In this document: positions 4,181-60,680 of the stretch, piece by piece
Numbering within the stretch: position 1 is the stretch's first letter
Layout of the letters: the number at the start of each line of letters is the position of its first letter
From: Candidatus Uhrbacteria bacterium
Lineage (GTDB): Bacteria; Patescibacteriota; Patescibacteriia; UBA9934
Direction of reading: 5' to 3'
DNA length: 64,000 bases
Assembly: GCA_018673485.1 (NCBI GenBank)
Contig: JABHCP010000015.1
Location: forward strand, 25,529 to 89,528
Notes under the pieces: model-generated
Database searches by the model: none
What the model saw: only the letters and a program-made list of their open reading frames with translations
What the model was told of the DNA's origin: nothing
Position numbers and translations under genes: made by a program

Positions 4181-4189
4181 TTGCTTGTT

Positions 4190-4254
4190 GAAAATGTTTA
4201 AGTTGTTTATTTCGAAATAAACACTTTAAGCATTTTAGACAATTTAAACATCCT
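4190..4254 (+). promoter_or_regulatory. conserved 5' motif copy 1 (contains 18 bp perfect palindrome GTTTATTTCGAAATAAAC) directly upstream of thrS start
   Basis: TGTTTAAGTTGTTTATTTCGAAATAAACACTTTAAGCAT...TTTAAACAT; near-identical copies at 60607-60680 and 63916-64000. Confidence 0.4.
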
Positions 4255-6298: not shown

Positions 6299-7666
6299 AT
6301 GAAAAATATGAAGACAAGATCACTTGCCTTATTGCTTTGTAATGTTTCAATCATTGCAATGGTTTTGGTTCCATTCACCTTTATGGTGCATGTTCCAGAG
6401 GCACAAGCTGCAACCATAACCGCATACTGTGATGGTACGGCAGCTTCTCCGGTTGTGCCAACAGATGCACCAGGTGGTTCCGAGCTTGATGAAGGATCCT
6501 GGACAACATCGGACAACGTAACTTTCCTAAATGGAAACAATGATGGGTACTGTGTTTTAGATAAAGAAATAGATGTAGCGTCAGTTACAATCGGTAACGG
6601 CCTAGCAGATGGATTTGACTATGCATTCCTAACTCACGCTGCAGCAGGTTGGGACAACGATCCCACTGGAGGTTTCGATATGCAGGGGGTGCTTATATCT
6701 ACATCGGGTAATTTTACAATTTATGCCGGTAACGGGATTAGTGCAGATAGTAAGGGGTGTGTAGGTGCTGGGACTTATAATGGCTATGGTCCAAATGGAT
6801 CAAATGTTTGTACATTGGGTGCAACTGGCTATGGTCCCGGTTTTAACTCTACTGGTAAAGGAGTTGCAGGTGCTGGTCATGGAGGAGCTGGTGGTGCTGG
6901 ATCGAGTGCAAACGGGACTGGAGCGTATTATGGATCTAATACAGCACCTATATTATTCGGCTCTTCTGGAGGAAATGTAACTTCAGCGGCATTGGGAGGC
7001 TCTGGAGGAGGACTTGTCAGGCTAGATGTTTCAGGAAGTTTCACACACAACGGATCTATTACGGCAGATGGCGGAGATGGTGGCGTGGTTGATGTTGGAG
7101 ATAAGGCTGCAGGTGGAGGATCTGGAGGATCTATTTATGTGACTGTTGTGGGGGCATTTGCTGGTAGTACAGGAACATTCTCTGCAGATGGTGGCGCTGG
7201 TGCTAATGATGATGCTCAAGATGGTGGTGGAGGTGGAGGAGGACGTGTTTCACTTAACTATGGATCCAGTACTTTTTCTGGATTGGGAAGTGAAGATTTT
7301 ACTGTAACGGGTGGAACAGCTACAGGTACAGCGGTAGCTGGTGACCTTGGAACTGTTTATGTAAAAGATACAACTGCAAGTGCAGTAACTATCTATCATG
7401 GGTTTACGTATGATTCAGATTTTAGTGAGACGACTTGGACCGTGGATTCATCTGCTACGGGTCAATACTGCGATGGTGCTTCAGATGCAACACCTTCGAT
7501 TACAGTCTCAGGAGCCCTTACTCTTGCAGGTACTTTAGACTGTACACACGCATCTGTCACAGGTTTTGACACCGCTGCAGGTACTAGTGTTACTTTGAGC
7601 AGTCTTACTTATACAATGAATGCTACAGCTGCAGGGGGAGTCCCCAGATATTTGGACAATGAATGA
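6299..7666 (+). CDS. secreted glycine-rich surface protein, N-terminal part (probably the 5' portion of one larger gene interrupted by a frame change at a G5 run)
   Basis: signal peptide MKNMKTRSLALLLCNVSIIAMVLVPFTFMVHVPEAQA; Gly-rich module CVGAGTYNGYGP...GGGGGGGRVSLNYG; TATAAT box at 6275-6280. Confidence 0.6.
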   Translation: MKNMKTRSLALLLCNVSIIAMVLVPFTFMVHVPEAQAATITAYCDGTAASPVVPTDAPGGSELDEGSWTTSDNVTFLNGNNDGYCVLDKEIDVASVTIGNGLADGFDYAFLTHAAAGWDNDPTGGFDMQGVLISTSGNFTIYAGNGISADSKGCVGAGTYNGYGPNGSNVCTLGATGYGPGFNSTGKGVAGAGHGGAGGAGSSANGTGAYYGSNTAPILFGSSGGNVTSAALGGSGGGLVRLDVSGSFTHNGSITADGGDGGVVDVGDKAAGGGSGGSIYVTVVGAFAGSTGTFSADGGAGANDDAQDGGGGGGGRVSLNYGSSTFSGLGSEDFTVTGGTATGTAVAGDLGTVYVKDTTASAVTIYHGFTYDSDFSETTWTVDSSATGQYCDGASDATPSITVSGALTLAGTLDCTHASVTGFDTAAGTSVTLSSLTYTMNATAAGGVPRYLDNE

Positions 7667-10331
7667 CGCTGTGCCAGTTACGCTTGCAAGCTCTACAATA
7701 AATTCAAATGTTCAATGGACGAACATGACTACTCTTTCCATTGATGCTAGTTCAACTATTAATGCAAATGAAAGAGGTTGTGTAAGTGCTGGGACTTATA
7801 ATGGTTATGGTCCAGATGGATCAAATGTTTGTACACTAAGCACAGCTGGATATGGTGCCGGTTTTAACGCTACTAGTAAAGGAGTCGAAGGTGCTGGTCA
7901 TGGAGGAACCGGTGGTGCCGGATCGACTACAAGCGGGGCTGGAGCTACTTATGGATCTAATACAGCACCTGTATTACTTGGATCTTCTGGAGGAAATGTA
8001 ACTGCAGCGGCATTGGGAGGTTCTGGAGGAGGACTTGTTAGGTTGGATGTTTCGGGAAGTTTCACACACAATGGATCTATTACGGCAGATGGTGGGGATG
8101 GTGGCGTGGTTGATACTGGTGATAAGGCTGCAGGTGGAGGATCTGGAGGATCTATTTATGTAACGGCTGGTTCAGTTATCGAAGGTGGTGGCGCAACAGG
8201 AACATTTTCTGCAGATGGTGGTGCTGGTGCTAATGACAATGTCACAGATGGAGGTGGAGGTGGAGGAGGACGTGTTCGTGTAGGATATGGAGCGGATGCA
8301 GACTCTCTCGTAGCTGGACTCTCGGCAGGTGGCGTGGCGGCTGGTGGTGCAGCTACAGGCACAGCAGTAGCAGGTTCAACGGGAACCCTTTCAACCGCTG
8401 ATATATACGGCCCATCAATCTCAACAGCCGTAACAAATGACGCAGACGCAGACGGTCAGATAGATACTATTGTCCTAACACTCTCAGAAGACGTAACAGG
8501 CGGCACAGTCGCCGGTGCTGACTTTACATTGTCAGATAGTTATACGGTGGCCTCAGCCTCGCGTACGGCAGATTCACAAATTACAATTGTTGTTACAGAA
8601 AAGAGCAACGATGGTGACACAGAAGTCGTTCCAACAGTAACCATCGCCGGCTCTATTGACGACACTTCAGCAAACTCAACAACGTCAGGCTCAAAAGCAT
8701 CAACAGACGGAGCTAAGCCTCGCATTAGTGCAATCAAGTACAGAGACCAAGATGCCGATGGAAAGATAGATGTGGTTACATTAAACTTTTCAGAATCCCT
8801 TGACGCAGCGTCAAGCATATCTCAAAATGATCTACTCGTTTATGCTGTAGGAGATTTCACAGGAGCGGCGTTTAATAGTGAAACAAATGATCTCTTCATG
8901 TCTCCAGACTGGACCATTCAGATTCCTTTGGCTACCGAAGCGACCGTGGTAGATACTAAGGATGATTCCGGCACCTTCGAGATTCGTCCACAAAAGTCTT
9001 TCTCAATCACAGACGGAACAAATACAAACACAGACACAGGTGAGCTTACACACATCTCTCCTGGAAGCTATGGAGACGAGGCCCAGCCTGTTATTACCTC
9101 GATAGCACCAGCTGACGCCGAGACAAGTGTTTCGGCCTCAGAAGATATCGTTGTAGTATTTTCAGAAGCAATGAATACAGGCTCAACTACCTATACAATT
9201 ACAGCTGACCCTGGCGGAGCATCTGAAGCATGGACAGTGAGTGATACAACTCTTACTATTTCTCATGACCAATTCCAGGGTTCCACTGATTACATTTTTG
9301 AAGTAACAGCAGCACCCGACGTCGCAGCGAATGCTCTTGCAGGTACAGTCTCTGGAGTAACCAACCCCGCAACATTCTCCATAGCGTCCGCTGGAGGAGT
9401 ATCTGTCTCTTCATCTGCCCCAGACCCATCCATTGGTTCAGGCTCAGAGGACAATCCAGTAGATTCAATCTCAGAGTCCTCAAGTGCATCTGGAACATGC
9501 GAAGAAGGTTTCAACCCTGGAGAGAACATCGCCCTTGCATGGGCTTCAAACTCAAGCGTGAATCTCGTCAACTTATACTATTCGACAGACGATGGAGATT
9601 CTTACACGCTCATTGAAGGTCCAATAACCAACACAGAAAACTACACTTGGACAATCCCAACAGACATCGTAGGCTCAACATTGCAGTTTAAGATAGAAGG
9701 AACGGACTTAGCTGAGATCACTGCCACCTTCGAGACCGAGAGTTGCGCCCTCAACGGTGCGGACGACGGCACAGAGGATGATACGATCGAAGACCCAACC
9801 TCAGAGGTCACAGAGCCAACCACAGGCGAGCAAGGCTATTCACCAGTGACAGGAGAAGTCGAGGACATCTCAGTGACAGAGGTAGGAGATTACATCCGAT
9901 CATCTTACTTCAGCACTGTCTACTATCTCGACACTGACACAGAAACAAACGAGATAGTTCGACGTCCTTTCATGGACGCACAGACATTCTTTACATACCA
10001 AGATAATTTCGACAACGTAAAGACGGTTACGGATGCAACACTTACAACAATAACTCTAGGATATCCAATGCTACCCAATCCAGGAGTTGTACTCATTAAG
10101 ATCCAATCTGACCCTAAGGTATATGCAATAGACTCAGACGGAACCACTATCCGCTGGATAGCCTCAGAAGAGGTCGCAAACACACTCTACGGCGATGATT
10201 GGAGCCAATACATCATAGACATCGAAGCAACGTTCTTCCCGAGGTTTACGCAAGGAGGTGATGTTGACGAAGCCGATGATATCGATCTTATGGATAGGGT
10301 GATGAAGAGGAGAAGCGAGCTTTCACAATAA
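7620..10331 (+). CDS. glycine-rich surface protein, continuation; carries a second copy of the Gly-rich module and a C-terminal ~110 aa domain shared with two other secreted proteins in the window
   Basis: overlaps previous ORF by 47 nt in another frame; module 7776-8282 ~90% nt identical to 6757-7262; C-terminus STVYY...KIQSDPKVYAI...FFPRF. Confidence 0.6.
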   Translation: MLQLQGESPDIWTMNDAVPVTLASSTINSNVQWTNMTTLSIDASSTINANERGCVSAGTYNGYGPDGSNVCTLSTAGYGAGFNATSKGVEGAGHGGTGGAGSTTSGAGATYGSNTAPVLLGSSGGNVTAAALGGSGGGLVRLDVSGSFTHNGSITADGGDGGVVDTGDKAAGGGSGGSIYVTAGSVIEGGGATGTFSADGGAGANDNVTDGGGGGGGRVRVGYGADADSLVAGLSAGGVAAGGAATGTAVAGSTGTLSTADIYGPSISTAVTNDADADGQIDTIVLTLSEDVTGGTVAGADFTLSDSYTVASASRTADSQITIVVTEKSNDGDTEVVPTVTIAGSIDDTSANSTTSGSKASTDGAKPRISAIKYRDQDADGKIDVVTLNFSESLDAASSISQNDLLVYAVGDFTGAAFNSETNDLFMSPDWTIQIPLATEATVVDTKDDSGTFEIRPQKSFSITDGTNTNTDTGELTHISPGSYGDEAQPVITSIAPADAETSVSASEDIVVVFSEAMNTGSTTYTITADPGGASEAWTVSDTTLTISHDQFQGSTDYIFEVTAAPDVAANALAGTVSGVTNPATFSIASAGGVSVSSSAPDPSIGSGSEDNPVDSISESSSASGTCEEGFNPGENIALAWASNSSVNLVNLYYSTDDGDSYTLIEGPITNTENYTWTIPTDIVGSTLQFKIEGTDLAEITATFETESCALNGADDGTEDDTIEDPTSEVTEPTTGEQGYSPVTGEVEDISVTEVGDYIRSSYFSTVYYLDTDTETNEIVRRPFMDAQTFFTYQDNFDNVKTVTDATLTTITLGYPMLPNPGVVLIKIQSDPKVYAIDSDGTTIRWIASEEVANTLYGDDWSQYIIDIEATFFPRFTQGGDVDEADDIDLMDRVMKRRSELSQ

Positions 10332-13824: not shown

Positions 13825-14683
13825 AGATTATGTAATCAACAATGACAAATATCGGAGTAGATAGCACTAATACGCCGGTTCCCAAAAATAGTGAAAAGAT
13901 TGCGCTGGCCGCTTCCTGAGTTTCGCTTAGCGGGAAGAATGCATACTCGATGCCCAAAATTATCAAAGCGATAATGACATGCAAAAGAGCTACCCCAATG
14001 CCAAATACTATTTTTGATATGAGCAGTCTCCAGAGTGTTGCCCAGAATCGCCCAGTAACTAATTGGTACGATCCCTTCACAGCTGACATCCCTTTCTTTT
14101 CAGCGATCAGTCTTTCAAAGGCTGAGAATCCCAATTTTATCCCAAGTAAGATTAGTAGAACCAGAGCCGCCACAACGCCAATGAGCATGGTTAGGTTGCT
14201 AAATGCCCCCCAAAAGCTTCCGCCGTTGTAATAAATGTTTGTAAAAATTAAGATCATTCCGGGAACAAGTAATAGTAGGGGAAGTGCGGTAAGTACTGAC
14301 TTCAAGATCGCCACCCAAAAGTATGAGAAAAAGTTCGTCCAACCGTATTTGCGCAATGCCTTGAGTGAAGTTGGCTTTTTCTTATCTTGAGATTCGACTG
14401 CTTTAACTAAGTTTATATAAATCCAAATTGTTAAAACAGGTACGGCAATTAATGAAATTAGTACCCCAAGAATTAAGCCGATAACCAGCATTGCATCACC
14501 TTGGCCATTGAATAGAGAGGCGAGTGACATGATTTCACCACTCGGGACAATCAAGATTCGTAGCAAGACGAGTACAGGAATGATGAGTGCCCATAGTGAG
14601 ATTTTCATCAGTGGCTTAAAAAATGCGCTGTAGTGATCCCAGCTTCGGTCAATGATCTGTCCGATTGAAATTAGTTTACCCAT
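13799..14683 (-). CDS. polytopic membrane protein, uncharacterised family (tandem paralogue 2)
   Basis: LVTGRFWATLWRLLISKIVFG block similar to paralogue 1; 294 aa. Confidence 0.5.
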   Translation of the reverse strand: MGKLISIGQIIDRSWDHYSAFFKPLMKISLWALIIPVLVLLRILIVPSGEIMSLASLFNGQGDAMLVIGLILGVLISLIAVPVLTIWIYINLVKAVESQDKKKPTSLKALRKYGWTNFFSYFWVAILKSVLTALPLLLLVPGMILIFTNIYYNGGSFWGAFSNLTMLIGVVAALVLLILLGIKLGFSAFERLIAEKKGMSAVKGSYQLVTGRFWATLWRLLISKIVFGIGVALLHVIIALIILGIEYAFFPLSETQEAASAIFSLFLGTGVLVLSTPIFVIVDYIIYDNLLKTK

Positions 14684-15422
14684 AGTTTTTGTTTAAAATC
14701 GAAGTTATTATTTTTGTAATATGTTCTTCCATCTGTGCCTTTGGTTGATCGGTGCTAAAGTCATGCACACAGGTTCCGCGGGAAGTGAAGAGTTGTGAGA
14801 ACCATTCTGAGCGGAAGCGTTGATCAACTTTTTTTAGATAGTCGATATTCTCAAACACACCTTTTGAATCATCGTCTCTGGTGTCGAGTCTAGTCTGCAG
14901 TTTTTCAGGATCAATGTGCGTAAGGATCAGGTGGTCAGGTGGGTAGGTGAGCGCTAGGGCGTTTCCTGGTAGCGCTATTAGATCTTCAAGCGATGGTGCT
15001 TCTTTCATAATCGGCTGGTAGACGATCGAGGACGATACTGATCTGTCTTGGATGATGATTTTACCAGCGGCAAGCGCTGGAGCGATAAGACGTACGTATT
15101 GAATGTGTCGATCGAGCGAGAACGCTTGCGCGACAATATCACCGCTAGCACCGGAATAGGAAAGTTCGTGCCGTATCGCTGCACCTACCCAATACTTCGT
15201 TGGTTCAAATGTGAAATAAACGTCGTAGTCTGCAATGTCTTTGAATTTTGGTGGTTTATCATTCTCCCGCGTCCAATCATTCAAATCAAATATTTTCAAC
15301 CCTTTTTCTTCTAGTTTGGCTTTTATAGCGCGAATAAGCGTGGATTTTCCACTACCTGCCACTCCATCGATTACTATAAATTGACCAGTGTCATTGCGCA
15401 TAAAGTATTTACAGTATAGCAA
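14676..15422 (-). CDS. thymidylate-kinase-family (d)NMP kinase
   Basis: P-loop FIVIDGVAGSGKSTL, FTFEPT and IIQDRSVSSS (DRx) blocks resembling Tmk. Confidence 0.6.
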   Translation of the reverse strand: MLYCKYFMRNDTGQFIVIDGVAGSGKSTLIRAIKAKLEEKGLKIFDLNDWTRENDKPPKFKDIADYDVYFTFEPTKYWVGAAIRHELSYSGASGDIVAQAFSLDRHIQYVRLIAPALAAGKIIIQDRSVSSSIVYQPIMKEAPSLEDLIALPGNALALTYPPDHLILTHIDPEKLQTRLDTRDDDSKGVFENIDYLKKVDQRFRSEWFSQLFTSRGTCVHDFSTDQPKAQMEEHITKIITSILNKNYG

Positions 15423-15460: not shown

Positions 15461-15892
15461 TTATTGTCCAGTTGTACCGAATCCACCACGATCTTTTGCG
15501 ATCATTTCATCGACCTCCTGGAACTCTGGACGGGTAACAGGAGTGAATAGCCCTTGAGCGACTCGATCTCCTGCTTTTAGCTCGATAGGCTCATCGGTTA
15601 TATTTTTAACGAGCAATGCCAACTCATCATTCGGGCCACAATAATCAGAGTCGATTACGCCAACACTGTTTGCTAAGTCGATCCCTTTTTTAAACGGGTT
15701 GGACGATCGTGAAATGATTAAGAGAGCGTGATCATCCGGGACATTGATTACCAATCCAGTTCTGATTTTTGTTATTGATCGAGCCTCAATCATCGCATCT
15801 TCCACGATCGCAATATCAAAGGCGGCAGCACCAGAAGTTTTGTATTCCGGGATCTGGGCCAATGGATGGTTTCGTTTGAATTCTATTTTCAT
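15461..15892 (-). CDS. dut: trimeric dUTPase-family nucleotide pyrophosphatase (dUTPase or dCTPase/dUTPase)
   Basis: motif 3 GVIDSDYCG (Arg replaced by Cys) and C-terminal motif 5 RGGFGTTG; start taken at internal MKIEFK. Confidence 0.75.
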   Translation of the reverse strand: MKIEFKRNHPLAQIPEYKTSGAAAFDIAIVEDAMIEARSITKIRTGLVINVPDDHALLIISRSSNPFKKGIDLANSVGVIDSDYCGPNDELALLVKNITDEPIELKAGDRVAQGLFTPVTRPEFQEVDEMIAKDRGGFGTTGQ

Positions 15893-16056: not shown

Positions 16057-16908
16057 ATGACAGAGTTTGATAAAGCTTTTCGAGATGCTATTGCCCAGAT
16101 CATGCTTGAGGGCTATGACATATTTTCTGAGCGCTCCCAGATTGATACTAAAGCGTTTCCAGGAATTACCTATGAGTTAAACCCAAGTAAAGGTTTTCCG
16201 CTTTTAACTCTGCGCAGAATTCCGATTCAGATTTTTGTTTCCGAAGTTGTTTGGATGATCACGGGAGAAAAGGATATATCGTTCATGCAGGAGTTTACGA
16301 AGATTTGGGATGCTTTTGCAGAAGAGGATAATACGATGGCAGCAGCTTATGGCTACAGGTGGCGCCATCATTTTGGTCGCGATCAGTTGTTGGACCTTGT
16401 TGAGCATCTAAAGCGAGAGCCGACTTCTCGGCAAGCAGTAGTTATTATGTGGGATCCAGCAGATGATGGGCTTTTGTCTCCAAAAAAGAAAAATGTACCG
16501 TGTCCTTTTACTTTCAGTGTTAATACCATTGGAAACAAGTTGAACTTTCATCTGGGTGTCAGGTCCAATGATATGATGCTTGGAAACCCGCATGATACTG
16601 CTGGTTTCGCGCTCTTGCAGGCCATGCTTGCGCAAGAGATTGGTATGGAGGTTGGGCGGTATATTGTTTCTATTTCTCATGCACACATCTACGGAAATCA
16701 TTATGAGCAGGCGCACACCATGCTTGAGCGCATGCCACATATGCATGATGAGATTGTGTTACAATTGCCCGAGAGGTCTTTTCAAAGAGCGCTTCAAAGA
16801 GATGTTAGTTTAGTTCATGAAATAACGGATTCTCTAAAGGCTCAGTATAAACCTATGAAGAAATTAAAGAAGATGAATATCATTGTGGGAGAACATAGCA
16901 CTAAGTAA
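16057..16908 (+). CDS. thymidylate synthase (ThyA) family enzyme with Asp at the uracil-specifying Asn position; candidate dCMP methylase/hydroxymethylase or divergent TS
   Basis: alignable by eye to E. coli ThyA through GFPLLTLRR, YGYRWR, catalytic Cys in NVPCPF (PCH equivalent), VRSNDMMLGNPHDTAGFALL versus RSCDVFLGLPFNIASYALL (Asn177 -> Asp); unrelated C-terminal extension. Confidence 0.7.
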   Translation: MTEFDKAFRDAIAQIMLEGYDIFSERSQIDTKAFPGITYELNPSKGFPLLTLRRIPIQIFVSEVVWMITGEKDISFMQEFTKIWDAFAEEDNTMAAAYGYRWRHHFGRDQLLDLVEHLKREPTSRQAVVIMWDPADDGLLSPKKKNVPCPFTFSVNTIGNKLNFHLGVRSNDMMLGNPHDTAGFALLQAMLAQEIGMEVGRYIVSISHAHIYGNHYEQAHTMLERMPHMHDEIVLQLPERSFQRALQRDVSLVHEITDSLKAQYKPMKKLKKMNIIVGEHSTK

Positions 16909-17416
16909 TATGAACGTATTATTATTAGCAGCAGTCAGTGCTGACGGTCGGATTGCAAAGTCAGCGGATCATTTGGCTGACTGGACTAGCAAAGAAGACA
17001 AGCGTTTTTTTGTTTCCAAAACAAAAGAGGTTGGTGCTTTGATTATGGGTCGTAAGACTTATGACACAATCGGACGTCCACTTCCAAATCGGCTGAACAT
17101 GATTATGACGCGCGAGGCAGATGCTTCGAAGAATGTTCAAGGTGAGCTTGAGTACACATCTAAATCTCCGCGTGAACTCATCGATGAACTAAAAGAGCGT
17201 GGTTATGATTCTGTGGTAATTGGTGGTGGAACATCTATCTACTCATTGTTTTTGAAAGAAGGGTTGGTGACGGATTTGTATCTTACGGTTGAATCGTTGT
17301 TGTTTGGATCGGGTATTCCATTGGTTGACGGTGTACCTCAGTTGATCCTTGACCTTCAATCAGCGGAGAAGATTGGCGAGCAGTCAGTTTTATTGCATTA
17401 TAAAATGACACAGTAG
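16883..17416 (+). CDS. folA: dihydrofolate reductase
   Basis: LLAAVSADGRIA ... LIMGRKTYDTIGRPLPNRLNMIMTRE matches the DHFR signature; overlaps the TS-family gene. Confidence 0.8.
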   Translation: MWENIALSNMNVLLLAAVSADGRIAKSADHLADWTSKEDKRFFVSKTKEVGALIMGRKTYDTIGRPLPNRLNMIMTREADASKNVQGELEYTSKSPRELIDELKERGYDSVVIGGGTSIYSLFLKEGLVTDLYLTVESLLFGSGIPLVDGVPQLILDLQSAEKIGEQSVLLHYKMTQ

Positions 17417-17516
17417 TGTCATCCCGGCCCCCGAGCCGGGATCTATCGTTTATCGAATTCGATAGTTGATAGATTCCTGCTTTCGACCCGTCTGACGGGT
17501 TTCGCAGGAATGACAA
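17404..17516 (+). ncRNA. structured intergenic element: three hairpins enclosed by TGTCAT/ATGACA
   Basis: CCCGGC-CCCCGA-GCCGGG; ATCTATC...TATCGAATTCGATA...GATAGAT; TCCTGC-TTTCGACCCGTCTGACGGGTTTC-GCAGGA; outer TGTCAT...ATGACA. Confidence 0.3.
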
Positions 17517-17529
17517 GAAATATAATTAT

Positions 17530-18453
17530 ATGAATTTAGAGGCCCCACAAATTGAATATCCATACTTACCAGAAGGTAGAGTTTTGAAATATGTTGCCCA
17601 TGATCATCCGATGATGATTGAGGCTCGTAAGGCTCAAGAGGAATTTAGTGGAGACCCAAGCTATCCGGTCGGGTCTGTATTAGTTAAGGATGGCAAGATT
17701 ATCGCAAGCGCTGGAAATGGTTTTAATCGTGGCAGGCAGGTGCATATTTGTCCACGCCTTGTCTTAGACGTTCCAACAGGAACGCAATATGAATTATGTT
17801 CATTGCATTTAAATCAAGGACATTCTGAGCAGATGTGTGTAGATCAGGCTTGTGAAGCTGGAGCGGATACAGAGGGTGCTGATTTATATATGTACGGACA
17901 TTGGTGGGCGTGTGAGCCGTGTTGGAAGAAGTTGCTTGATGCAGGAATTCGAGATGTGTATGTTACCGATGACGCTCATATTCGATTTGCACGCGATAAA
18001 GTTTATTCAGCATTTTTAACACCTTCATCGAAATCGGTGTATATCGCAGGAACTATTTCAAGTTTACCTCAGAAAGATCGATATGAATATTTACGCTTGT
18101 ACGAACGATTTGATGAGACTGCGCGAGAGATGGGGCTTGAAAGTTTTGTACCACATATTCATTCTGATATTGAAAAGAGTGAGGGTCAGGACGTGAAGAG
18201 TGTTTTTGATGTGGGGGAGGGTGAGATTGCCAAGCGTGATGCATTTGTAGCTGAGGTTACACATCCATCACACGGTGTAGGAATGGAGCTCATGAGTGCA
18301 TATAAACTTGGTAAGTCGATAATATTATTGTCAAAAAAGGGAAGTGACGTCGGGCGATTTGTGAAAAGTATCCCCACCGTGGTTTATCATGCCGAGTACG
18401 AAGATTTTGATGAGGCGTGTAAGTTTTTGAAAAACATTTTGAAACAGCTCTAG
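17530..18453 (+). CDS. dCMP/cytidylate deaminase fused to a nucleoside 2-deoxyribosyltransferase / Rcl(DNPH1)-like domain
   Basis: zinc deaminase motifs HSEQMCV and CEPCWKKL in the N-terminal half; C-terminal half has NDT/Rcl-like THPSHGVGMELMSAYKLGKSIILL with the conserved Glu. Confidence 0.65.
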   Translation: MNLEAPQIEYPYLPEGRVLKYVAHDHPMMIEARKAQEEFSGDPSYPVGSVLVKDGKIIASAGNGFNRGRQVHICPRLVLDVPTGTQYELCSLHLNQGHSEQMCVDQACEAGADTEGADLYMYGHWWACEPCWKKLLDAGIRDVYVTDDAHIRFARDKVYSAFLTPSSKSVYIAGTISSLPQKDRYEYLRLYERFDETAREMGLESFVPHIHSDIEKSEGQDVKSVFDVGEGEIAKRDAFVAEVTHPSHGVGMELMSAYKLGKSIILLSKKGSDVGRFVKSIPTVVYHAEYEDFDEACKFLKNILKQL

Positions 18454-18455
18454 CT

Positions 18456-18878
18456 ATGAGTGCAGAGCGTCCAATGTATTGTGTTGGAGTGAACGTTTTT
18501 GTGATGCGTGATGGTAAGTTGCTTTTAGGACAACGAAAGCATTGTTCAGGTGAGGGATCGTGGGGTTTACCTGGTGGTCACTTAGAGCATGGTGAATCGA
18601 TGGAAAGTGCGGGTTTGCGTGAACTGATGGAAGAGACGGGGCTTCAGGCAGATTCGTTGACATTTGTGAATATTGTTAATGATCGTAGTAGGGGGCAGCA
18701 TTACATTCAGACAGGATTTTTGGCGAACAATATTTCTGGGGAGGTTGGTGTTATGGAGCCAGATCGGTGTGAATGTTGGGAGTGGTTTGATGTTGATTTA
18801 TTACCTAAGAATCTTTTTCACGGACATGAAGCTCAGATAGAAATATTTAGACAGGATAAAATATTTAGAGATAATTAA
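18456..18878 (+). CDS. Nudix (MutT-like) hydrolase
   Basis: Nudix box GGHLEHGESMESAGLRELMEETGL. Confidence 0.8.
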   Translation: MSAERPMYCVGVNVFVMRDGKLLLGQRKHCSGEGSWGLPGGHLEHGESMESAGLRELMEETGLQADSLTFVNIVNDRSRGQHYIQTGFLANNISGEVGVMEPDRCECWEWFDVDLLPKNLFHGHEAQIEIFRQDKIFRDN

Positions 18879-18881
18879 AAC

Positions 18882-18907
18882 ACAGCTCTAATCAAGCTGT
18901 TTTTTTC
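18882..18907 (+). terminator. intrinsic terminator after the Nudix gene
   Basis: ACAGCT-CTAATCA-AGCTGTTTTTTT. Confidence 0.6.
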
Positions 18908-20178
18908 TTGGAAAAGCATGAAGCGCGTAGACGAGTGTCGTACGCGCTTCTTACGAGGAGGGAGTCAGACGAAGCCCTCCTTGAGAATGTGGCCCATGTT
19001 ACCTCCGTGAGGTTAGAGGCCTGATTGTTTGGCAAATGCCATGCTCGCTTACCAGTCGTGTGACTGCGAGCGTTGGGTTTTGACGAGATTGATTACCGAG
19101 GCCCTCGTCATCTGGCCCCATATCGCGCATGATGCACCTCCTTGAAGGGGCCTAGCGATTTCATTGCAGCGCATTACCTAGCGCTGCGTTAGGACAGATT
19201 ATCCGATCTGCACAGGGATCTAAGTTAACCGCGTTTTGTCTCTGGGTGGCCAAGGTTGACGTCTCATGGCGACCTTGCGGGGCGGTGCTTCTGCACCCGA
19301 GCCAGCATGATACTTTTACGCACACTTACTGTGCACCTGCTACCAACGCTGCAACGCTGATTCAGGGGGAGCTATACTGTACTCCGTGTTTCGAGAGATG
19401 GCGAGTCTCCCATTTTTCATCTTGGGCGCCTTACTTCCCTTAAGGTGTCCGAGACACCAAGTATCAGATGAGGTACTTGTGCGTTGTGGCCCTGGTAGGC
19501 CTTAACGACATATCTGTAACTTGAGTACTTGCAGTGACTCATGAAACAGTGAGGTCTCCGTACTAATTTCCATTTCTCAAAGAGTTGAGCCATTTGCCCG
19601 CAGGCATATGATTCTTCTTGGATTGGCCTAAATGTTGGTTTGGCCCCAAATGCCCGTTCGAGACATTCTTGAAAAATCCTACTATTAATACGTTCTTCTC
19701 TCGCATTGTCGACTGGCGCAGTGCCTCTATTCGAGGACTTCTTCACGCGTGGAACCAGTTACCGTGTTATCCCTTCCCAGGGCACGGCCTCCACACGCTG
19801 TTTAGTATTCATCTTCCATCGGGGGGTTGGGGAAGAACATCTCTTCCTCCTGTGTGAGTTGTTCTGGCGCCTTTTTATGCGCCGTGTATGTGCCTACATT
19901 TTTACGCCCCGTTTCATTGGGGTGGGTTTGAGGGTTGTTGTGGTACCTGCCTTGCGGCAGGTGCTTGCTGCCGGTTGGCCCGGGCGGGCCAGTTACGTGG
20001 CAGCTCCTCAACCGAAGTGCGAAGAATACATAATTCCTCTCCTCCTTGTGTAGGATGAACAATATAGCACAAAAAAGACCTTTTGTCAAGGTAAAGTGCT
20101 AATTTTCGCGCTAAAATTAGGTGCAAAACAAGGGCCGCTCCGGCCCAAAGGGCGGAGCGGAAGTGCTGTGTGGGCCAT

Positions 20179-20568
20179 CTAGACCATGAGTGTTTTGACT
20201 GCCTCGACGATCTCTGGGAGAGATGAGTCGCCGGCAATGAAGGCTTTGGTTGCGTGACGCGCAACAAGCTCCATGCCAGCAGGATCACATCGGTCTGAGG
20301 CGATGAAGATGGGGATGTCGATCTCCATCACTCGGAGTGCAGCAGCAATGATGACACCAGCTTCGCCACGTACGTCGTGATGAATGTTTTCGCATTCGGT
20401 GAACATCATTCGTGTGATGATGAGGCCGGGTTGTGGGATTTGGAGTATCGCCTGTATACCTGCATAGGGGTTGAATGCCACCATGACTTCAGTGCCTTCG
20501 ATGGTGTCAATGTGGTGCTCAAGGCTTTCACGCCAGGGCAGATTCGAGGCGATGATAAGGATGCGCAT
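20179..20568 (-). CDS. hypothetical protein, possibly a degenerate CheY-like receiver domain
   Basis: 129 aa; beta-alpha pattern MRILIIASN...GLIITRMMF but no acidic pocket DD. Confidence 0.3.
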   Translation of the reverse strand: MRILIIASNLPWRESLEHHIDTIEGTEVMVAFNPYAGIQAILQIPQPGLIITRMMFTECENIHHDVRGEAGVIIAAALRVMEIDIPIFIASDRCDPAGMELVARHATKAFIAGDSSLPEIVEAVKTLMV

Positions 20569-20788: not shown

Positions 20789-21442
20789 TTAGAGTGAAAA
20801 TTTGTCTTTTAGGGCTTGTAGGTTTCCTCTTGTGAGTAGGTCTCGTTCTTCAGATTTATCAACTTTATATTTTGGTTCACCTGAGTTTGAGTATTTCGCT
20901 TCTGACAGCCCGTGCATTTGTGCTTCTTCACTCGTGAGAGGTTCGGACAACTCTTCGAAAATCACCTGGCAGATTCGTTCACCTGGGAAGATTCGTAGTA
21001 CTTGGTTTCCAGCCTCGTTTTTCATTGGGAATATCAAGTTGCCGTTATATCCGGTGTCGATGATTCCTGAGAGTGATAGGTTTATTCCTCTTCGGTTCGT
21101 GGAAGTTCGGGGGAAGAGGATTGCCATAAGGTCAGGCGCGTTCATTTCGATTCGTTCAAGACTTGTTGCTATAACGAATTCGTTTGGAAGAAGATCGAAA
21201 TATTGTCCGGGCTTGAGGGTTACTTCATCAAACTGTTCAGAGTGAATGTCGGTATCTTCTATTGAAACTTTGAGAGCTGCACGACCTTTTTCGGTTATGG
21301 TCCAGTTTTTTGGAATCAAGAACTTATATCCGAGCCTCAAATCAATAGCGTGTGGTTGCAATTGGAAATGATCGAGTCCTGGATCAAAAACGATATCATT
21401 GGATTTGATCCGTTCTAAAATTGCTTTTCGCGTTAAAATCAT
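20789..21442 (-). CDS. dcd: dCTP deaminase family protein
   Basis: MILTRKAILERIK...AIDLRLG...GIIDTGYNGNLIFPMKNEAGN...PGERICQVIFEEL matches Dcd; start taken at the Met aligning with the Dcd N-terminus (the 276 nt GC-rich ORF extension upstream is not credited). Confidence 0.8.
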   Translation of the reverse strand: MILTRKAILERIKSNDIVFDPGLDHFQLQPHAIDLRLGYKFLIPKNWTITEKGRAALKVSIEDTDIHSEQFDEVTLKPGQYFDLLPNEFVIATSLERIEMNAPDLMAILFPRTSTNRRGINLSLSGIIDTGYNGNLIFPMKNEAGNQVLRIFPGERICQVIFEELSEPLTSEEAQMHGLSEAKYSNSGEPKYKVDKSEERDLLTRGNLQALKDKFSL

Positions 21443-21892
21443 ATGCCAATAGATTATCATATTGAGCGATTTGCCTCCAGGTGCGAGAACACCGCAGCTC
21501 AAGTGTTGCGGTGTAGTGAGGCGTTGAGCCACGTTTGACGTAATACGCGTCGTATTTGTTCGAGCGAGAGAACTTCGGGGCGCGTATTGCCAATCCGCAC
21601 ACAGACCATGATGACGCCGGCGCGTACCCAGGAGCAGGGGATTGAGCGTGAGCGCATGAAAAGCTCTAGCTGATTTGGCGTTGGAAGCGTAGCCGCGTTT
21701 ATAGAGATTGTGATGCAATACTCTGTTTGATAACCGTGGAGCTCCATTAGGCGTTCACGGTCAATATTGCTCAAATCTCGAAGCGTGATGCCCATAGGGC
21801 TCTCCTGTGCAAAGGTTGGACATTCACCTTAGCAGATTTATAGGAAACACAAAACCGCCCTTACGAGCGGTTTATTTGTTTCGTGTTTTCGA

Positions 21893-24493: not shown

Positions 24494-24529
24494 GGCAACC
24501 TCCCCTAGCCCCTCCTTGGGAAGGAGGGG
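24494..24529 (+). repeat. REP-like GC-rich element, copy a (GGCAACC + CCCCTCCTTGGGAAGGAGGGG hairpin)
   Basis: sequence read directly; family of 5 copies. Confidence 0.5.
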
Positions 24530-37525: not shown

Positions 37526-37706
37526 AGCACTGAATTTCGTCGAGATTGTAGCATGAGCCCTTTTTGCTGTCAATAAACGATCCTGGCCTATGGACAGGAT
37601 GCTTGGTATGGTGTACTTTAGAGCGTTCTGCGCGGAAAATCGTGCGGTACGACACGTCCCTTTTACCCCAATGTTCGAGAAAACCCACGCACGGAGGAGC
37701 AATTCA

Positions 37707-39902
37707 ATGCGTACGATTTATCTGATCCTGGTCGCTATTCTGGTGGCCGGCTGTCTCCCCGCTCTTCCGGAGTATGACCCTTCGGTAGAGAAGTACGATC
37801 TGCCACCGGCAGACGCTGATGGTGATGGCTACGAGTCTGATGTCGACTGCGACGATGACGATGCCAGCATCTATCCTGGCGCAGAAGAGATCTGCGACGG
37901 CCAGGATAACGACTGCGACGAGCTCACCGACGAGGATGTGGCTCAGAGCTTCTACCTCGACAGCGACGGTGACAGCTATGGCGATCCCAACATGATCATT
38001 CAGGCCTGCGAGGCCTCAAGCGACTACGTTGACAACGCTGACGACTGCGACGATGATGATCAGGACACCTACCCGGGTGCACCTGAGCGCTGCGACGGCG
38101 ATGACAACGACTGCGACGAGCAGATCGACGAGGACCTGGTGGAAACCTGGTATCTCGATTCCGACGGCGATAGCTTCGGCAACGTCGAGGAATCGATCGA
38201 ATCCTGTGATCCGTCAAGCGCCTATGTCGCGAATCCTGACGATTGCGATGACGCTGACGCCGAGGTTTACCCCGAGGCTGATGAGTATTGCGATCTGATC
38301 GACAACGACTGCGACAGCATGGTCGACGAAGACGATGCACTCGATGCCCAGACCTGGTACTTCGACGAGGATGGCGATGGCTACGGGCTCGACGATGAAT
38401 CGATCCAGAGTTGTCAGTGGCCTGAGGGCTATGCTCGCCACAGTGGTGACTGCGATGACGGCGACATAGCCTTCAATCCCGCAGCACTCGAGGACGATTG
38501 CACCGATCCCAACGACTACAACTGCGATGGCTCAACCGGCTATGCCGACGATGACAGCGATGGTTTCGCAGCCTGTGAGGAGTGCAATGACTCAGATGCG
38601 AGCATCAATCCCGCCGCGACCGAGATCTGCGACGAGCTCGACAACGACTGTGATGGCCTCATCGACGATGAGGATGACAGCCTCGACGCATCGACCGGTT
38701 CGATCTTTTACCTCGACGGCGACGGCGACGGCTACGGCGACTCAAGCGTGGCCGACGATGCCTGCGAGCCCTTGTCTGGCTACGTGGCCGACGCGACCGA
38801 CTGCGACGACACCGATGCGGACATCAACCCTGACGCGACTGAGGTCTGCGACGAGGACGATGTCGATGAGGACTGCAACGGCTACGCTGACGACGATGAT
38901 GTCAGTGTGGATGTGTCCACGCAGACAGATTGGTTCGATGACGGCGACGGCGATAGCTACGGTGACGCCGCTTCGCTCGTCACTGCGTGTGAGTCCCCGG
39001 ACGCACATGCAGTCACCAACGATTCGGACTGCGATGATACCGACTCCACAATCAACCCCGATGCGACCGAGGTCTGCGACGAGGATGATGTCGATGAGGA
39101 CTGCGACGGTCTGATCGATGACGACGACCCCAGTGTCGATGTTTCGACCGGCCCCACCTTCTACCTGGACTGGGATGGCGACGGCTACGGTGCCGATGAC
39201 TACACGGTCACGGCTTGCGACGCTCCTTCTGGGTACGTTGAGGACAGCACAGATTGCGATGATGCTGACGTAGACGTGAGTCCCGCTGCGACCGATGAGC
39301 AGGCCACGGCCTGGGATGAGGACTGCGATGGAGACGATGGACGCGCAGACGGTTACGAGTACGTCACCAGCTATTATGGTAACTGGTATGCCTCGGGCAG
39401 CAGCTTGGTGGAGGAGTCCACCTCCAATGAGTTTTCCACTCTCGAAAGTGGAATTACTAGTTGGTACGATGTTGCTGGTTCCAGCCTCGTGGTTTCCACG
39501 CATGTGTTCTCTTCGGTCTATTCCGGTGAAATGGATGTGATCGAGTTTCCTGAGAACACGGGGACACATCCGCTCGATGGATGTGTACGCGCGGATGATC
39601 TTTCCACTAGTCTGAGCGCAGGAGTGGATTACGGGTTCGTCTTTGTGGTGGCCAATACCAGTACCACTGGTTCGACAACCATCTTCGTAGCCGAAGGTGA
39701 TGGATACGAGTACCATGTCTCTGGAGAGGGGGATTACATCATGGGTGCGCTTGCGCTCAATGCTGGTGATGAGGTCTTGGTGGGCGAGGCTTTCACTGCC
39801 TCGGACAGCTCTGAAGATCTGTTGATCTGTGCCTTGGGTAACAGTGGCGCTGATGAGATGGACTTGCGGATTAGCCACTTTGGTATCTACTCGGTGAACT
39901 AG
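37707..39902 (+). CDS. high-GC lipoprotein built from Cys/Asp-rich putative metal-binding repeats (myxobacterial-type DxDxDGYxxxxDCDDxDxxxxPxAxExCDxxDNDCD modules)
   Basis: lipoprotein signal [16 protein letters not shown]; at least 8 repeat modules; GC content far above flanking genes. Confidence 0.6.
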
Positions 39903-40189
39903 AGCGATGGCTCAGAAAACAACGAAAACCCCCTGATTCAGGGCCTAGCGGTGCTCCGCAAAGGTTGCTGGATTGGGGGATTGTGCTTTGGGCAATGTTG
40001 AGCTTCCAAGGTAGCTATTGACAAAATAGCTAAAATTTGGTAAAAAAAGGCGTTATTTTGTAGTGTTTTTTGTTTTATGTAAGTGGTATCTTTCCTTTTA
40101 CATAAGGCCAAAAGCTTCTTTCACATCTACACTTTCCCCCATTGCCACGCTGGCCTGCGTGACAATAAACCCCCAGCAAGGAGAATGTC

Positions 40190-42058
<1,869 letters not shown>

Positions 42059-42157
42059 ACCCAGCCCCAGACACGGCCCTCGAGCCGGCAGATGGAAAGC
42101 ATGCACTGCATGTGGACCTCTGCCGGCTCTTCTGCTTTTCTGATACAATATAGGTGA

Positions 42158-43687
42158 ATGATTAATCTGAAGGAGACTTATCAAGCAAGTGATCAATACG
42201 CACGCTTTGCCGCGTTTGTTCTTTTTGGTATTTCACTCGCAGCTTTGGTTGGCTCAATAGTATTCTCCCCATCTCTTATTTTGGGAGTTGTGTTTGCGAT
42301 AGCGGTTTTGGTGATGAGTTTTGTGCGGCCAACTTGGTCATTAGCGTTCCTGCTTGTTTATCTGCCATTTGAGCCATTTCTGCTGAAGTGGATTTCAGAT
42401 GACATTTATTTATATGCCCGTTATTTTTCAGAGTTATTAATTTATTTGCTCGTTGTTGTTGTTTTTTGGAAGTTTGCCAGTGGTCAGCTTAAGTTAAAAC
42501 AGTCGCCAATCGACGTTATATTCATCCTATTTTTAATTGCATTATTAACATCAGCGCTTGTAAATTTTGTTGATCCAACAGTCGCAGTGCTAGGAATTCG
42601 TCAGATCATTCGCTTTATTCTTTTGTTCTTTGTGACGATTTATTTAAATCCAACAGACAAATGGATCAAGTCTTTGGTTTATATAATGTTTATTATTTTA
42701 GGATTTGAGGTTTTGCTCGGAGTAGGGCAAGTGTTTTTTGGAGAAATGCTAGATAGCTTTTTACTACCATCAGAAGCCCGAGCTTTTGGTGAGATTCAGC
42801 TTACATCAGGAACTGTACAATTTTGGGACCATGGACAGCGGATTTTTGGAACTCTTGGTCGTTATGACAGGCTGGGAACTTTTATGGCATTTTTTATGCT
42901 GATCGGAGTTTCAATGCTTTATGAGCCGAGACTGCGTAAGTATCGATCGCTGTTGATTTTCTTACTAGTTCTTTCTATTTTTACGTTAGCAATGACATAT
43001 TCTCGCTCGGCGTGGTTTGGTTTTGTTTTGGGATTTTTGTTTATTGCCATATGGGCCAAGAAAGATAGGCGAGTAGTATGGGCCGTAGGAGTGGCTTTGG
43101 GCGCGATCGCTGTATATCTAGCTATATCTGGGCTTATTGTAAGCAATTTATTTGACGTTGCCGATCAAACCGTAATTGAAAGGTTTTTTGAAGCGTTTTC
43201 TTATGAAAGGTGGCGAGGTGAGTATTATGGATTAGGGCGACTTTATTGGATTGTGCAGACTGTCATTACCGTAATTCCGGCAGCGTTTATTTTTGGATTT
43301 GGTCCAGCAACATATGGTGGAGGTGCAGTGGCAGCATTGGGAAATACAGAAGTTTATGATCAGCTAGGATTGTCATTTGGTGTTTATGGAACAGAGGGTT
43401 ACATTGATAACAATTGGTTTAGTTTGTGGGGTGAGACTGGAACACTTGGATTAACAATATACATAGTGATGTATGTGACTTTGTTTTTGATATGTTTAAA
43501 AGTATGGCGAAGGTCAAAAAAATCATTTACTAGAGCTTTAGCACTTGGCGTAGCAGCAGCAATGATTGCTATTGTACTTAATTCATTTTTAGCTACTTTT
43601 TTGGAAGTGAGAACCCTAGCTCCATACTTGTGGGTATTTACTGCATTGGTAGTTATCATGGGGGTACGCGAAAAATTAATTGAGTAA
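42158..43687 (+). CDS. O-antigen ligase / Wzy-like polytopic membrane protein
   Basis: ~12 TM helices; block [25 protein letters not shown] typical of O-antigen ligase family. Confidence 0.55.
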
Positions 43688-49312: not shown

Positions 49313-49419
49313 CCCTCCCCCTTCCCAAGGGGGAGATGGAGGGGGTTGCCAGTGAACTTAATTTGATCGAATTTGATCAAATGGCAACCACCCCTTACCC
49401 CTCCTTGGGAAGGAGGGGG
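49313..49419. repeat. inverted pair of REP-like GC-rich elements (copies b and c) separated by ~30 bp
   Basis: CCCTCCCCCTTCCCAAGGGGGAGATGGAGGGGGTTGCC ... GGCAACCACCCCTTACCCCTCCTTGGGAAGGAGGGGG. Confidence 0.5.
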
Positions 49420-53667: not shown

Positions 53668-53700
53668 CCCCCTTCCCAAGGGGGACGACAGGGGGTTGCC
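53668..53700 (-). repeat. REP-like GC-rich element, copy d
   Basis: CCCCCTTCCCAAGGGGGACGACAGGGGGTTGCC. Confidence 0.45.
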
Positions 53701-53857
53701 ATTGGTCGCATTCGATAGAAACGTCTATACGTTTCTATCCCACTTGGTTCTTAGGAGCCTTGCGGGGCCTTAAATAAGGTTCAACCCTGAGATATCGCCC
53801 GAAAGGTCGAGGGCGCATGCCCAGTGATATCTCCTACTATTAAATAGAAAGGACTAA

Positions 53858-60606: not shown

Positions 60607-60680
60607 TAAATTGATGAAATTGTTTAAGTTGTTTATTTAGAAGTAAACACTTTAAACATCTTAAACAAGTGAGGGCTCGG
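60607..60680 (+). promoter_or_regulatory. conserved 5' motif copy 2 upstream of the epimerase gene
   Basis: TTGTTTAAGTTGTTTATTTAGAAGTAAACACTTTAAACATCTTAAACAA. Confidence 0.4.

Follow-up and report, generated by a model that had tools for sequence, protein, structure and literature searches.

The dCMP deaminases and the 2'-deoxynucleotide N-glycosidase DNPH1, also called Rcl, are both well-known protein families, and in human cells they work consecutively on the same nucleotide pool. There, the deaminase DCTD converts 5-hydroxymethyl-dCMP, which is salvaged from epigenetically modified DNA, to 5-hydroxymethyl-dUMP, and DNPH1 removes the latter (PMC10305735). The two human enzymes are separate proteins, and DNPH1 is a stand-alone, dimeric protein of ~150 amino acids (aa). 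Here we describe a gene that joins the two families in a single polypeptide, a Rosetta-stone fusion with the DNPH1-like domain located behind the deaminase domain. The gene was found in a stretch of 64,000 nucleotides (nt) of contig JABHCP010000015.1 (GenBank assembly GCA_018673485.1) from a tiny-genome Candidatus Uhrbacteria bacterium, which we refer to as the window. The source of modified nucleotides is here likely to be an enzyme of the thymidylate synthase (TS) type rather than salvage, and the main product of the deaminase is probably dTMP.

The combination of a TS homologue, a deaminase and dihydrofolate reductase (DHFR) is already known from phages. In XP12, PaMx74 and Xanthomonas phage DoCa5, a TS homologue with Asp at the position of Asn177 in E. 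coli ThyA, TS(Asp177), is clustered with a dCMP deaminase and DHFR. Such phage TS homologues make 5-methyl-dCMP, their cis-encoded deaminases prefer 5-methylcytosine (5mC) substrates, and the formation of thymine nucleotides by deamination of 5-methyl-dC nucleotides has been proposed for these phages (bioRxiv 10.1101/2024.12.05.627091). However, the phage deaminases are short and canonical (152 aa), with no domain resembling the nucleoside 2'-deoxyribosyltransferases (NDT), the superfamily to which DNPH1 belongs. Furthermore, the phage modules serve to produce 5mC DNA, whereas the genes described here belong to the chromosome of a cellular lineage, as a conserved operon beside genes for ribosomal proteins. 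TS-like partners are also found for MilB, BcmB and BlsM, which are nucleotide glycosidases of the NDT superfamily that cleave CMP and hydroxymethyl-CMP in the biosynthesis of nucleoside antibiotics.

A gene for a protein related to dCTP deaminase (DCD) but lacking its catalytic Glu is also part of the locus. In literature searches, we found no description of a fusion between a deaminase and a DNPH1-like domain in either order, of an association between NDT-like proteins and the TS node in Patescibacteria, of the pathway proposed here in bacteria of the candidate phyla radiation, or of a conserved operon on the chromosome of a cellular lineage in which a TS(Asp) module comes with a DCD-like protein that lacks the Glu. 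In the original prediction, which was made from the DNA sequence alone, the domain combination had likewise not been recognized as a standard one.

A conserved protein with deaminase and DNPH1/Rcl-like domains

The fusion protein is identical to a recorded 'hypothetical protein HN358_02425, Candidatus Uhrbacteria', and its relatives are publicly labelled 'hypothetical', 'deoxycytidylate deaminase' or '2'-deoxynucleoside 5'-phosphate N-hydrolase'. The N-terminal half (N-domain) matched Pfam dCMP_cyt_deam_1 (PF00383) over aa 25-145 (E=4.6e-12; 46.2 bits versus a 25-bit cut-off) and contains the two zinc motifs of the cytidine deaminase (CDA) fold that had been recognized at the outset, HSEQMC (aa 98-103) and CEPCWKKL (aa 128-135). 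Using a family profile built from 79 full-length relatives, the best match of this half in PDB was the S. mutans dCMP deaminase 2hvv (5.6e-8). The score for the NCBIfam model TIGR02571 (ComEB) was 30.5 bits as compared to a cut-off of 219 bits, and there is thus no equivalog-level identity with the housekeeping dCMP deaminase.

The C-terminal half (C-domain) had been assigned to the flavodoxin-like NDT/DNPH1 group. Its match to Pfam Nuc_deoxyrib_tr (PF05014) over aa 170-276 (E=4.1e-5) scored 24.1 bits, or 26.6 bits when the C-domain was searched alone, both under the gathering score of 28.8 bits. Among 25 C-domains of family members, 23 matched PF05014 at E<0.01, with a best value of 2e-12. 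A phmmer search of PDB with the fusion protein retrieved rat Rcl/DNPH1 (E=2.9e-4), and every residue of the signature AEVT-x-PS-x-GVG-x-EL was aligned between the two proteins. With the family profile, the C-domain matched Rcl/DNPH1 best (1e-7), followed by BcmB (1e-6), BlsM (2e-5) and MilB (3e-4).

An AlphaFold2 model of the fusion protein, built on the family alignment, had a predicted local distance difference test score (pLDDT) of 92.2 and a predicted template modelling score (pTM) of 0.86. In Foldseek comparisons, the N-domain of the model superposed on the dCMP deaminases of PBCV-1 and T4. The C-domain superposed with a probability of 1.00 on MilB, human DNPH1, NDTs, BlsM and BcmB, at target-normalised template modelling (TM) scores of 0.7-0.8 and with 24-27% identity to DNPH1/Rcl in structural alignments. 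The best structural match was MilB (E=1.2e-6; TM 0.77, target-normalised). Because the evidence from the family, from the PDB profile searches and from the structures agrees, we consider the assignment of the C-domain solid despite the score of the query for PF05014, and the agreement well outside what chance would produce. Both halves thus match the expected domain families, which confirms that the fusion protein is a real, conserved two-domain protein, composed of a deaminase and a DNPH1/Rcl-type domain of the NDT superfamily.

Active-site residues of the two domains

The catalytic zinc motifs H98-x-E100 and C128-x-x-C131 were invariant in all 79 full-length relatives. These motifs, the CDA fold, a G(F/Y)N motif and a second Zn-type site upstream of HxE are shared with the described dCMP deaminases (the S. 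mutans/B. subtilis ComEB type, T4 Cd, human DCTD and PBCV-1 bi-DCD). The second site consists of H72, C74 and C90, each present in 79/79 proteins, and H93 (77/79). In contrast to the described enzymes, the clade studied here has a YPYLPEGR N-terminus, GHWWACEPCW in place of (T/H)FPCxxC and HSE/HAE-x-M in place of HAE-x-N. It is also set apart by the C-terminal NDT-like domain and by its invariable linkage to TS(Asp177) across the examined loci.

The C-domain was compared to DNPH1 using the residue roles described in PMC10603095. Reference numbering for E. coli ThyA, Dcd and Dut, T4 gp42, human DNPH1 and T. maritima ThyX follows sequences that were checked only against PDB alignments. The nucleophile, Glu104 in DNPH1 (rat E93), corresponds to E253, which is present in 79/79 proteins and had been correctly named as the catalytic Glu. 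It is located in the PSxGxGxEL loop and in the stretch SHGVGMELMSAYKLGKSIILL (aa 247-267) quoted in the original prediction, along with the near-invariant G249 and G251 and with S247 (Ser in 77/79), the counterpart of the phosphate-binding Ser98; this position is Asp in nucleoside-specific NDTs. The 2'-deoxy discriminator Tyr24 corresponds to Y171 (Tyr in 76/79). The residue contacting O2 of the base, His56, would correspond to H209 (74/79), an equivalence that, like that of DNPH1 Asp80 discussed below, relies on sequence alignments and not on residue-level superposition: P208-H209 aligned with E55-H56 of DNPH1 in MAFFT, while HMMER placed the loop two residues off. The base-flanking Ile29 and Ile76 are conservatively kept as I176 and V225, and the C-terminal helical extension 'hSxhhRG' is shared as well.

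Relative to MilB, Tyr instead of Phe signifies a deoxy rather than a ribo substrate and His instead of Glu signifies uracil rather than cytosine (PMC10603095). MilB, BcmB and BlsM have Phe17 (ribo), Glu62 (cytosine) and Arg23, whereas the corresponding residues here are Tyr, His and Ser/Thr, at 17-18% identity. Judged by these residues, the C-domain is DNPH1-like, and is predicted to be directed at deoxynucleotides and to make a uracil-type base contact.

The linked TS homologue and DCD-like protein suggest a rewired thymidylate route

The TS homologue encoded upstream of the fusion gene has Asp at the position of Asn177 in E. coli ThyA, Pro at His147 and Phe at Trp83. The gap-free alignment to PDB reads 'rsndmmlgnphdtagfall' in the window and 'rsadvflgvpfniasyall' in the reference. 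Cys146, Glu58, Tyr94, Arg166, Ser167 and Asp169 are retained. The linked TS genes of the related loci (L001-L085) all have Asp177 (72/72) and, with a single exception, the catalytic Cys (71/72); at the position of His147, Pro was observed in 66 and Tyr in 5. The replacement Asn177Asp is an established switch in specificity from dUMP to dCMP (Hardy & Nalivaika 1992; Liu & Santi 1992; both cited in PMC8670742). The most similar phage TS genes, with 34-38% identity, come from PaMx74/XP12-like phages, where they are located in TS-dCMP deaminase-DHFR modules, and share with the window TS the motifs PCP, Asp177, YGYRWR..FGRDQ and WDPxxDGL. Taken together, the sequence features suggest that the linked TS homologue is probably not a dUMP-using TS. 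Transfer of a methyl rather than a hydroxymethyl group is predicted from the coupling to DHFR, since methyl transfer releases dihydrofolate, and from the retained C-terminal tail.

The DCD-like protein has Pro at the position of the catalytic E138 of E. coli Dcd, with 'gnlifpmkn' aligned to 'gqitlelfn' in PDB, and Pro was found at this position in 66/66 linked DCD-like homologues. The protein also lacks the catalytic Asp of dUTPases, which is present in the neighbouring true dUTPase. Judging from these substitutions, the gene cannot encode a canonical dCTP deaminase; the protein may instead be a pyrophosphatase acting on dCTP or 5-methyl-dCTP, or it may have a regulatory role. We had considered that the DCD and dUTPase genes of the cluster might supply dUMP, which would contradict a dCMP-based route, but this objection dissolved with the finding that the catalytic Glu is missing from all 66 DCD-like genes.

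A natural control is provided by a syntenic locus without this deaminase (L086), in which the TS has Asn177 and His147 and the DCD is long and canonical, with the catalytic Glu. The alternation between TS(Asn) with DCD(Glu), on the one hand, and TS(Asp) with this deaminase clade and DCD-like(Pro), on the other, is the pattern predicted by a rewired route from dCMP via 5-methyl-dCMP to dTMP. No ThyX and no second TS were found within the 64-kb window.

Distribution, decay and additional fusions of the family

In a survey with one genome per GTDB species, 171 relatives of the fusion protein were identified, essentially all from Uhrbacteria and other Patescibacteria, and the best 80 loci were examined. 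An intact fusion with the catalytic Glu loop was present in 38 of these. Another 31 loci encode the deaminase with a shortened C-terminal rump that lacks the Glu loop, and 11 encode little beyond the deaminase. The rump, as seen in relatives of 235-241 aa, retains only the first strand together with the last strand and helix of the NDT-like domain, a pattern that indicates an internal deletion. A protein index search yielded ~75 full-length relatives (~300 aa) with 42-81% identity. The mean pairwise identity was 60% for the N-domain versus 45% for the C-domain. Thus, the deaminase-NDT fusion is old, conserved and repeatedly decayed.

When cluster representatives were scanned exhaustively with HMMER and the C-domain profile, 3180 relatives were detected, most of them stand-alone and 140-160 aa long. 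Searching the C-domain alone against an index of 5.8 billion proteins gave no matches, which we ascribe to a limitation of the index given the 3180 HMMER relatives. A metagenome scan with the C-domain profile retrieved 13 loci of the same family, using a pattern that is specific to the fused clade and thus uninformative on stand-alone members. Among the viral structures in BFVD, only single-domain matches were obtained.

Other arrangements involve the same set of genes. One relative encodes a DHFR-deaminase-NDT triple fusion, another protein is an NDT-deaminase fusion in reverse order, followed by a TS gene (P0156, locus L088), and a third is a fusion of an NDT-like with a DCD-like domain, the latter without the catalytic Glu (P0207, L089). 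Stand-alone NDT-like genes were located between TS(Asn177) and DHFR in L086 (4162-5923), between a deaminase and DCD-like(Pro) in L104/L105, adjoining a DCD-like gene in L108, and in an unrelated context in L109. In L103 (1121-4426), the gene order is DHFR, ComEB-like deaminase, DCD-like, TS(Asn177) and stand-alone NDT-like. The DCD-like partners in L103 and L108 also lack the Glu. NDT-like genes thus neighbour TS, deaminase or DCD-like genes in four of five stand-alone contexts, or in six of seven contexts if the P0156 and P0207 fusions are counted. We conclude that members of the NDT-like family repeatedly accompany the deoxypyrimidine/thymidylate node in Patescibacteria and have been fused in several independent ways.

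Many of the loci, including L006, L008 and L010, come from third-party metagenome-assembled genomes titled 'uncultured Gammaproteobacteria bacterium' despite a Patescibacteria-type operon. These titles are apparent placeholders or mislabels and should not be taken as taxonomy.

Proposed function and alternative explanations

We tentatively propose, with a confidence that falls just short of even, that the TS homologue is a dCMP methylase, that the N-domain is a 5-methyl-dCMP deaminase and that the C-domain removes deoxyuridylate by-products. In this scheme, the Glu-less DCD-like protein, the adjacent NUDIX enzyme, or both would generate dCMP from dCTP. The DHFR-coupled TS homologue would methylate dCMP to 5-methyl-dCMP, which the deaminase domain would convert to dTMP for phosphorylation to dTDP by the thymidylate kinase (Tmk), constituting a dUMP-independent route. 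By homology to DNPH1, the fused C-domain would be a built-in pool sanitiser that binds deoxyuridylate-type by-products, such as dUMP, produced when dCMP is deaminated off target, and 5-hydroxymethyl-dUMP, produced when a TS intermediate has been trapped by water and then deaminated. Cleavage of the N-glycosidic bond would proceed through a Glu253-deoxyribosyl-5-phosphate intermediate to yield the free base and deoxyribose 5-phosphate.

Several observations weigh against this scheme. The general-acid Asp80 of DNPH1 is replaced by G229 in the query, in the register of both the HMMER and MAFFT sequence alignments; the column is Asp in just 26/79 fused relatives and, in 86 stand-alone relatives, Asp in 69 and Asn in 11. 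The second phosphate-binding Ser of DNPH1, Ser128' on the helical extension of the partner subunit, is replaced by G275, at a position that is Ser/Thr in 68/79 fused and Ser in 79/86 stand-alone relatives. Both Gly residues are common to the query and its closest relatives, P0001-P0006. Throughout the family, the putatively water-activating Glu55 is replaced by Pro (P208) and Arg30 by Ser/Thr. Because Asp80 and Ser128' have been replaced by Gly, the activity of the C-domain in this protein is predicted to be probably weak or mechanistically altered, and the sequence gives no pointer to the base that it would cleave. The loss of the Glu loop, or of nearly the whole C-domain, in many of the loci examined suggests that the glycosidase is dispensable. 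Also, the NDT-like family occurs beside canonical TS(Asn177), for which dUMP is the wanted substrate, and removal of dUMP can therefore not be its general role. Finally, the phage deaminase mSCD-B5 works on triphosphates and single-stranded DNA but not on monophosphates (bioRxiv 10.1101/2024.12.05.627091), so that the phosphorylation level of the deaminase substrate is not certain.

These observations also narrow the scope of the original prediction, according to which the protein would couple deamination of a dCMP, possibly modified, to cleavage of the resulting dUMP analogue. The coupling mirrors the human DCTD-DNPH1 series and stays alive for side products. However, TS(Asp177) in 72/72 loci suggests that the main task of the deaminase is to convert 5-methyl-dCMP to dTMP, and since cleavage of dTMP would be counter-productive, any coupling would concern by-products only. 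The query has G229 and G275 in place of two DNPH1 residues. With the C-domain decayed in approximately 40% of the species examined, the glycosidase would be accessory at best. The separate NDT-like genes adjoining TS(Asn177) imply a role tied to the thymidylate node in general and not to the deaminase product alone. The idea that the C-domain clears dUMP as a dead end was weakened as a general explanation by the TS(Asn177) neighbours in L086 and L103, although dUMP was kept as a possible substrate. A by-product common to both module types, for example 5-hydroxymethyl-dUMP, the physiological substrate of DNPH1, fits better. In genomes with TS(Asp), in which dUMP would lead nowhere, this nucleotide is a plausible additional target.

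The replaced residues also fit an alternative without catalysis, according to which the C-domain of this protein is a nucleotide-binding or structural module, such as an allosteric dNMP sensor or an oligomerisation scaffold, on its way to becoming a rump. The Gly pair in P0001-P0006, the relatives of 235-241 aa with only a rump, the degenerate domain in 31/80 loci and the faster evolution of the C-domain all agree with this explanation, as does the pTM value, which suggests a fixed packing of the two domains in the model. However, an invariant E253, together with near-invariant Y171, S247, G249, G251 and H209, is hard to reconcile with a domain that performs no chemistry and no specific ligand binding. 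Loss of the Asp may moreover be tolerated for uracil-type bases, given the anionic leaving group and SN2-like transition state of DNPH1 reported in PMC12751057. We regard a silent C-domain as rather unlikely.

Somewhat less probable still is that an ordinary dCMP deaminase feeds dUMP to an ordinary TS, with the C-domain acting as a general dNMP hydrolase for pool balance or for the supply of deoxyribose 5-phosphate in a scavenging cell of the candidate phyla radiation (CPR). The best PDB profile match of the N-domain is indeed a housekeeping dCMP deaminase, dUTPase and Tmk genes are adjacent, stand-alone NDT-like genes are found also beside TS(Asn177) and a ComEB-like deaminase, and Rcl/DNPH1 slowly hydrolyses several dNMPs (PMC10483697). 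But the linked TS genes uniformly carry Asp177 and motifs like those of phage dCMP methylases, and the linked DCD-like genes have all lost the deaminase Glu. The perfect pairing of this deaminase clade with TS(Asp) would be left unexplained.

A transferase function for the C-domain appears doubtful. As a dNMP:nucleobase phosphodeoxyribosyltransferase, it would swap the bases of scavenged dNMPs (e.g. purine dNMP + cytosine/uracil to dCMP/dUMP) to feed TS in a cell with little de novo synthesis. The founding members of the superfamily are transferases with the same Glu-deoxyribosyl intermediate, and the residues for which activation of water has been proposed in DNPH1, namely E55 and, in the classical scheme, D80, are here Pro and mostly non-Asp, respectively. 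An NDT is central to deoxynucleotide salvage in the parasite Borrelia burgdorferi, which has a reduced genome (PMC2764106). That the family is linked to TS whether the module is of the Asn or the Asp type would fit a role in substrate supply. On the other hand, stand-alone relatives have kept the Asp and many species dispense with the domain. To our knowledge, no transferase acting at the dNMP level is known in the NDT superfamily, and Rcl/DNPH1 has no transferase activity.

A pathway of the MilA/MilB or BcmA/BcmB kind, in which the TS homologue modifies a cytosine nucleotide and the NDT-like domain frees the modified base as a metabolite precursor, is very improbable: MilB is the top structural match and the pairing of TS-like with NDT-like proteins is the same (PMC5175136; PMC10603095), but Y171 predicts a 2'-deoxy substrate and H209 a uracil-type base, the equivalent of MilB Arg23 is missing, DHFR coupling predicts methyl and not hydroxymethyl transfer, and the cluster is a housekeeping block, conserved in the vicinity of ribosomal protein genes and devoid of tailoring enzymes.

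The proposal of dCMP methylation followed by deamination, with the C-domain as sanitiser, can also be carried further. In Uhrbacteria and related Patescibacteria, the locus would then be a chromosomal version of the phage XP12/PaMx74 5-methylcytosine module, with a DCD-like or NUDIX enzyme that removes dCTP, TS(Asp177), DHFR, a deaminase of 5-methyl-dC nucleotides and a dNMP kinase as its parts. All thymidylate would be made without dUMP, 5-methyl-dCTP formed ahead of replication would be incorporated so that genomic cytosine is largely or wholly 5-methylcytosine, and the DNPH1-like domain would police the by-products. We consider this extended version a long shot.

Genomic context

The positions of the genes and domains are listed in Table 1. 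The fusion gene is the third of four co-directional genes, following TS and DHFR and preceding the NUDIX gene, with the Tmk-like kinase and dUTPase genes divergent upstream and the DCD-like gene 2.3 kb downstream. This arrangement recurs in relatives, in the order Tmk, DUT / TS, DHFR, deaminase(-NDT) ... DCD-like, L1, L11, NusG. TS, DHFR and deaminase genes were found in this order on the same strand in 60 of the 65 loci containing all three, and the position of the Tmk-like kinase is likewise conserved. The window is otherwise ordinary chromosome, with genes for DnaE, ThrRS, MiaA, GatB, GyrB and ribosomal proteins. An origin from a prophage or phage was ruled out by the synteny across many species, between GatB and L1/L11/NusG.

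Table 1. Positions in the window of the fusion gene, its domains and the surrounding genes.
Feature	Position	Strand	Evidence or remark
Thymidylate-kinase-like dNMP kinase	14676..15422	-	Pfam Thymidylate_kin E=2.3e-23, dNK E=8.9e-9
Canonical trimeric dUTPase, IDSDY motif	15461..15892	-	Pfam dUTPase E=1.6e-22
Thymidylate-synthase homologue, predicted dCMP methylase	16057..16908	+	Pfam E=1.1e-53
Dihydrofolate reductase	16883..17416	+	Pfam DHFR_1 E=3e-18; start overlaps TS stop by 26 nt
Spacer between DHFR and fusion genes, 113 nt, three hairpins	17417..17529	+	Minimum free energy -50.9 kcal/mol, z=-6.7
Fusion gene, dCMP-deaminase-family domain and DNPH1/Rcl-like domain	17530..18453	+	ATG start, 307 aa
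Deaminase domain core, aa 25-145	17602..17964	+	Pfam PF00383 and family profile against PDB
DNPH1/Rcl-like 2'-deoxynucleotide N-glycosidase-fold domain, aa 168-307	18031..18450	+	Profile, fold and residue equivalences
NUDIX hydrolase, candidate (5-methyl-)dCTP pyrophosphatase	18456..18878	+	Pfam NUDIX E=7e-21; 3 nt past fusion stop
DCD-like protein	20789..21445	-	Pfam DCD E=2.9e-26

The NUDIX protein has a weak likeness to the NudG-type pyrimidine (d)NTP diphosphatase of NCBIfam (E=1.8e-10, below the cut-off), and BLAST detected a homologue in only 5 of 86 sources (85 loci and the window region). The hairpin spacer sequence occurs once in the window, and it is missing from the 81%-identical relative in L006, where the DHFR and fusion genes abut. 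Rfam revealed no known RNA in the spacer or in the window as a whole, and no tRNAs were found in the window. The spacer may be an attenuator or terminator, or a small inserted element.

Past the NUDIX gene, ~1.3 kb (18879-20178) contains no convincing open reading frame (ORF), and only ~130 nt of it (20004-20130) is conserved in the closest relative. It is followed by an ORF of 129 aa on the minus strand (20179-20568) with no Pfam match.

Other features were noted elsewhere in the window. A high-GC island at 37590-42196 (57-65% versus ~43% elsewhere) has many degenerate tandem and dispersed repeats, with periods of 12/18 nt around 40.2-40.8 kb and units of ~200-220 nt. Overlapping ORFs on both strands of the island are probably composition artefacts; the ORF at 37590-39902 encodes five MopE-like Cys/Asp-rich metal-binding repeats. 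An AT-rich palindromic intergenic element of 58 nt (TTGTTGAAAATGTTTAAGTTGTTTATTTCGAAATAAACAC...) is present in three copies that are 79-88% identical (4185-4242, 60611-60668 and 63927-63984). Short GC-rich hairpin-type repeats (GGCAACC.CCCCT..CCCCTCCTTGGGAAGGAGGGG and a complement-like partner) are located at gene ends, at 24494-24529, 49318-49354, 49383-49418 and 53668-53704, and are possibly terminators or similar to repetitive extragenic palindromic elements. Internal duplications with 83-89% identity (6709-7008 / 7730-8029 and 7049-7249 / 8070-8276) are common to the adjacent ORFs 6299-7666 and 7620-10331, which are Gly-rich, the second with a Big_5 domain, and resemble paralogous surface-protein modules.

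Implications

The fusion protein joins the DCTD-like and DNPH1 families, which were recently shown to act serially on modified pyrimidine nucleotides in human cells, which suggests that the two are partners of long standing in evolution. For DNPH1, a cancer drug target, the fusion also provides small bacterial models. The operon predicts that an entire lineage of bacteria may form thymidylate through methylation of dCMP and subsequent deamination, bypassing dUMP, a route hitherto suggested only in the case of phages whose DNA contains 5mC. If true, thymidylate synthesis would have to be annotated differently in CPR genomes, where the genes now go under the names 'thymidylate synthase', 'dCMP deaminase' and 'dCTP deaminase', and the question would be raised of whether these organisms have modified DNA.

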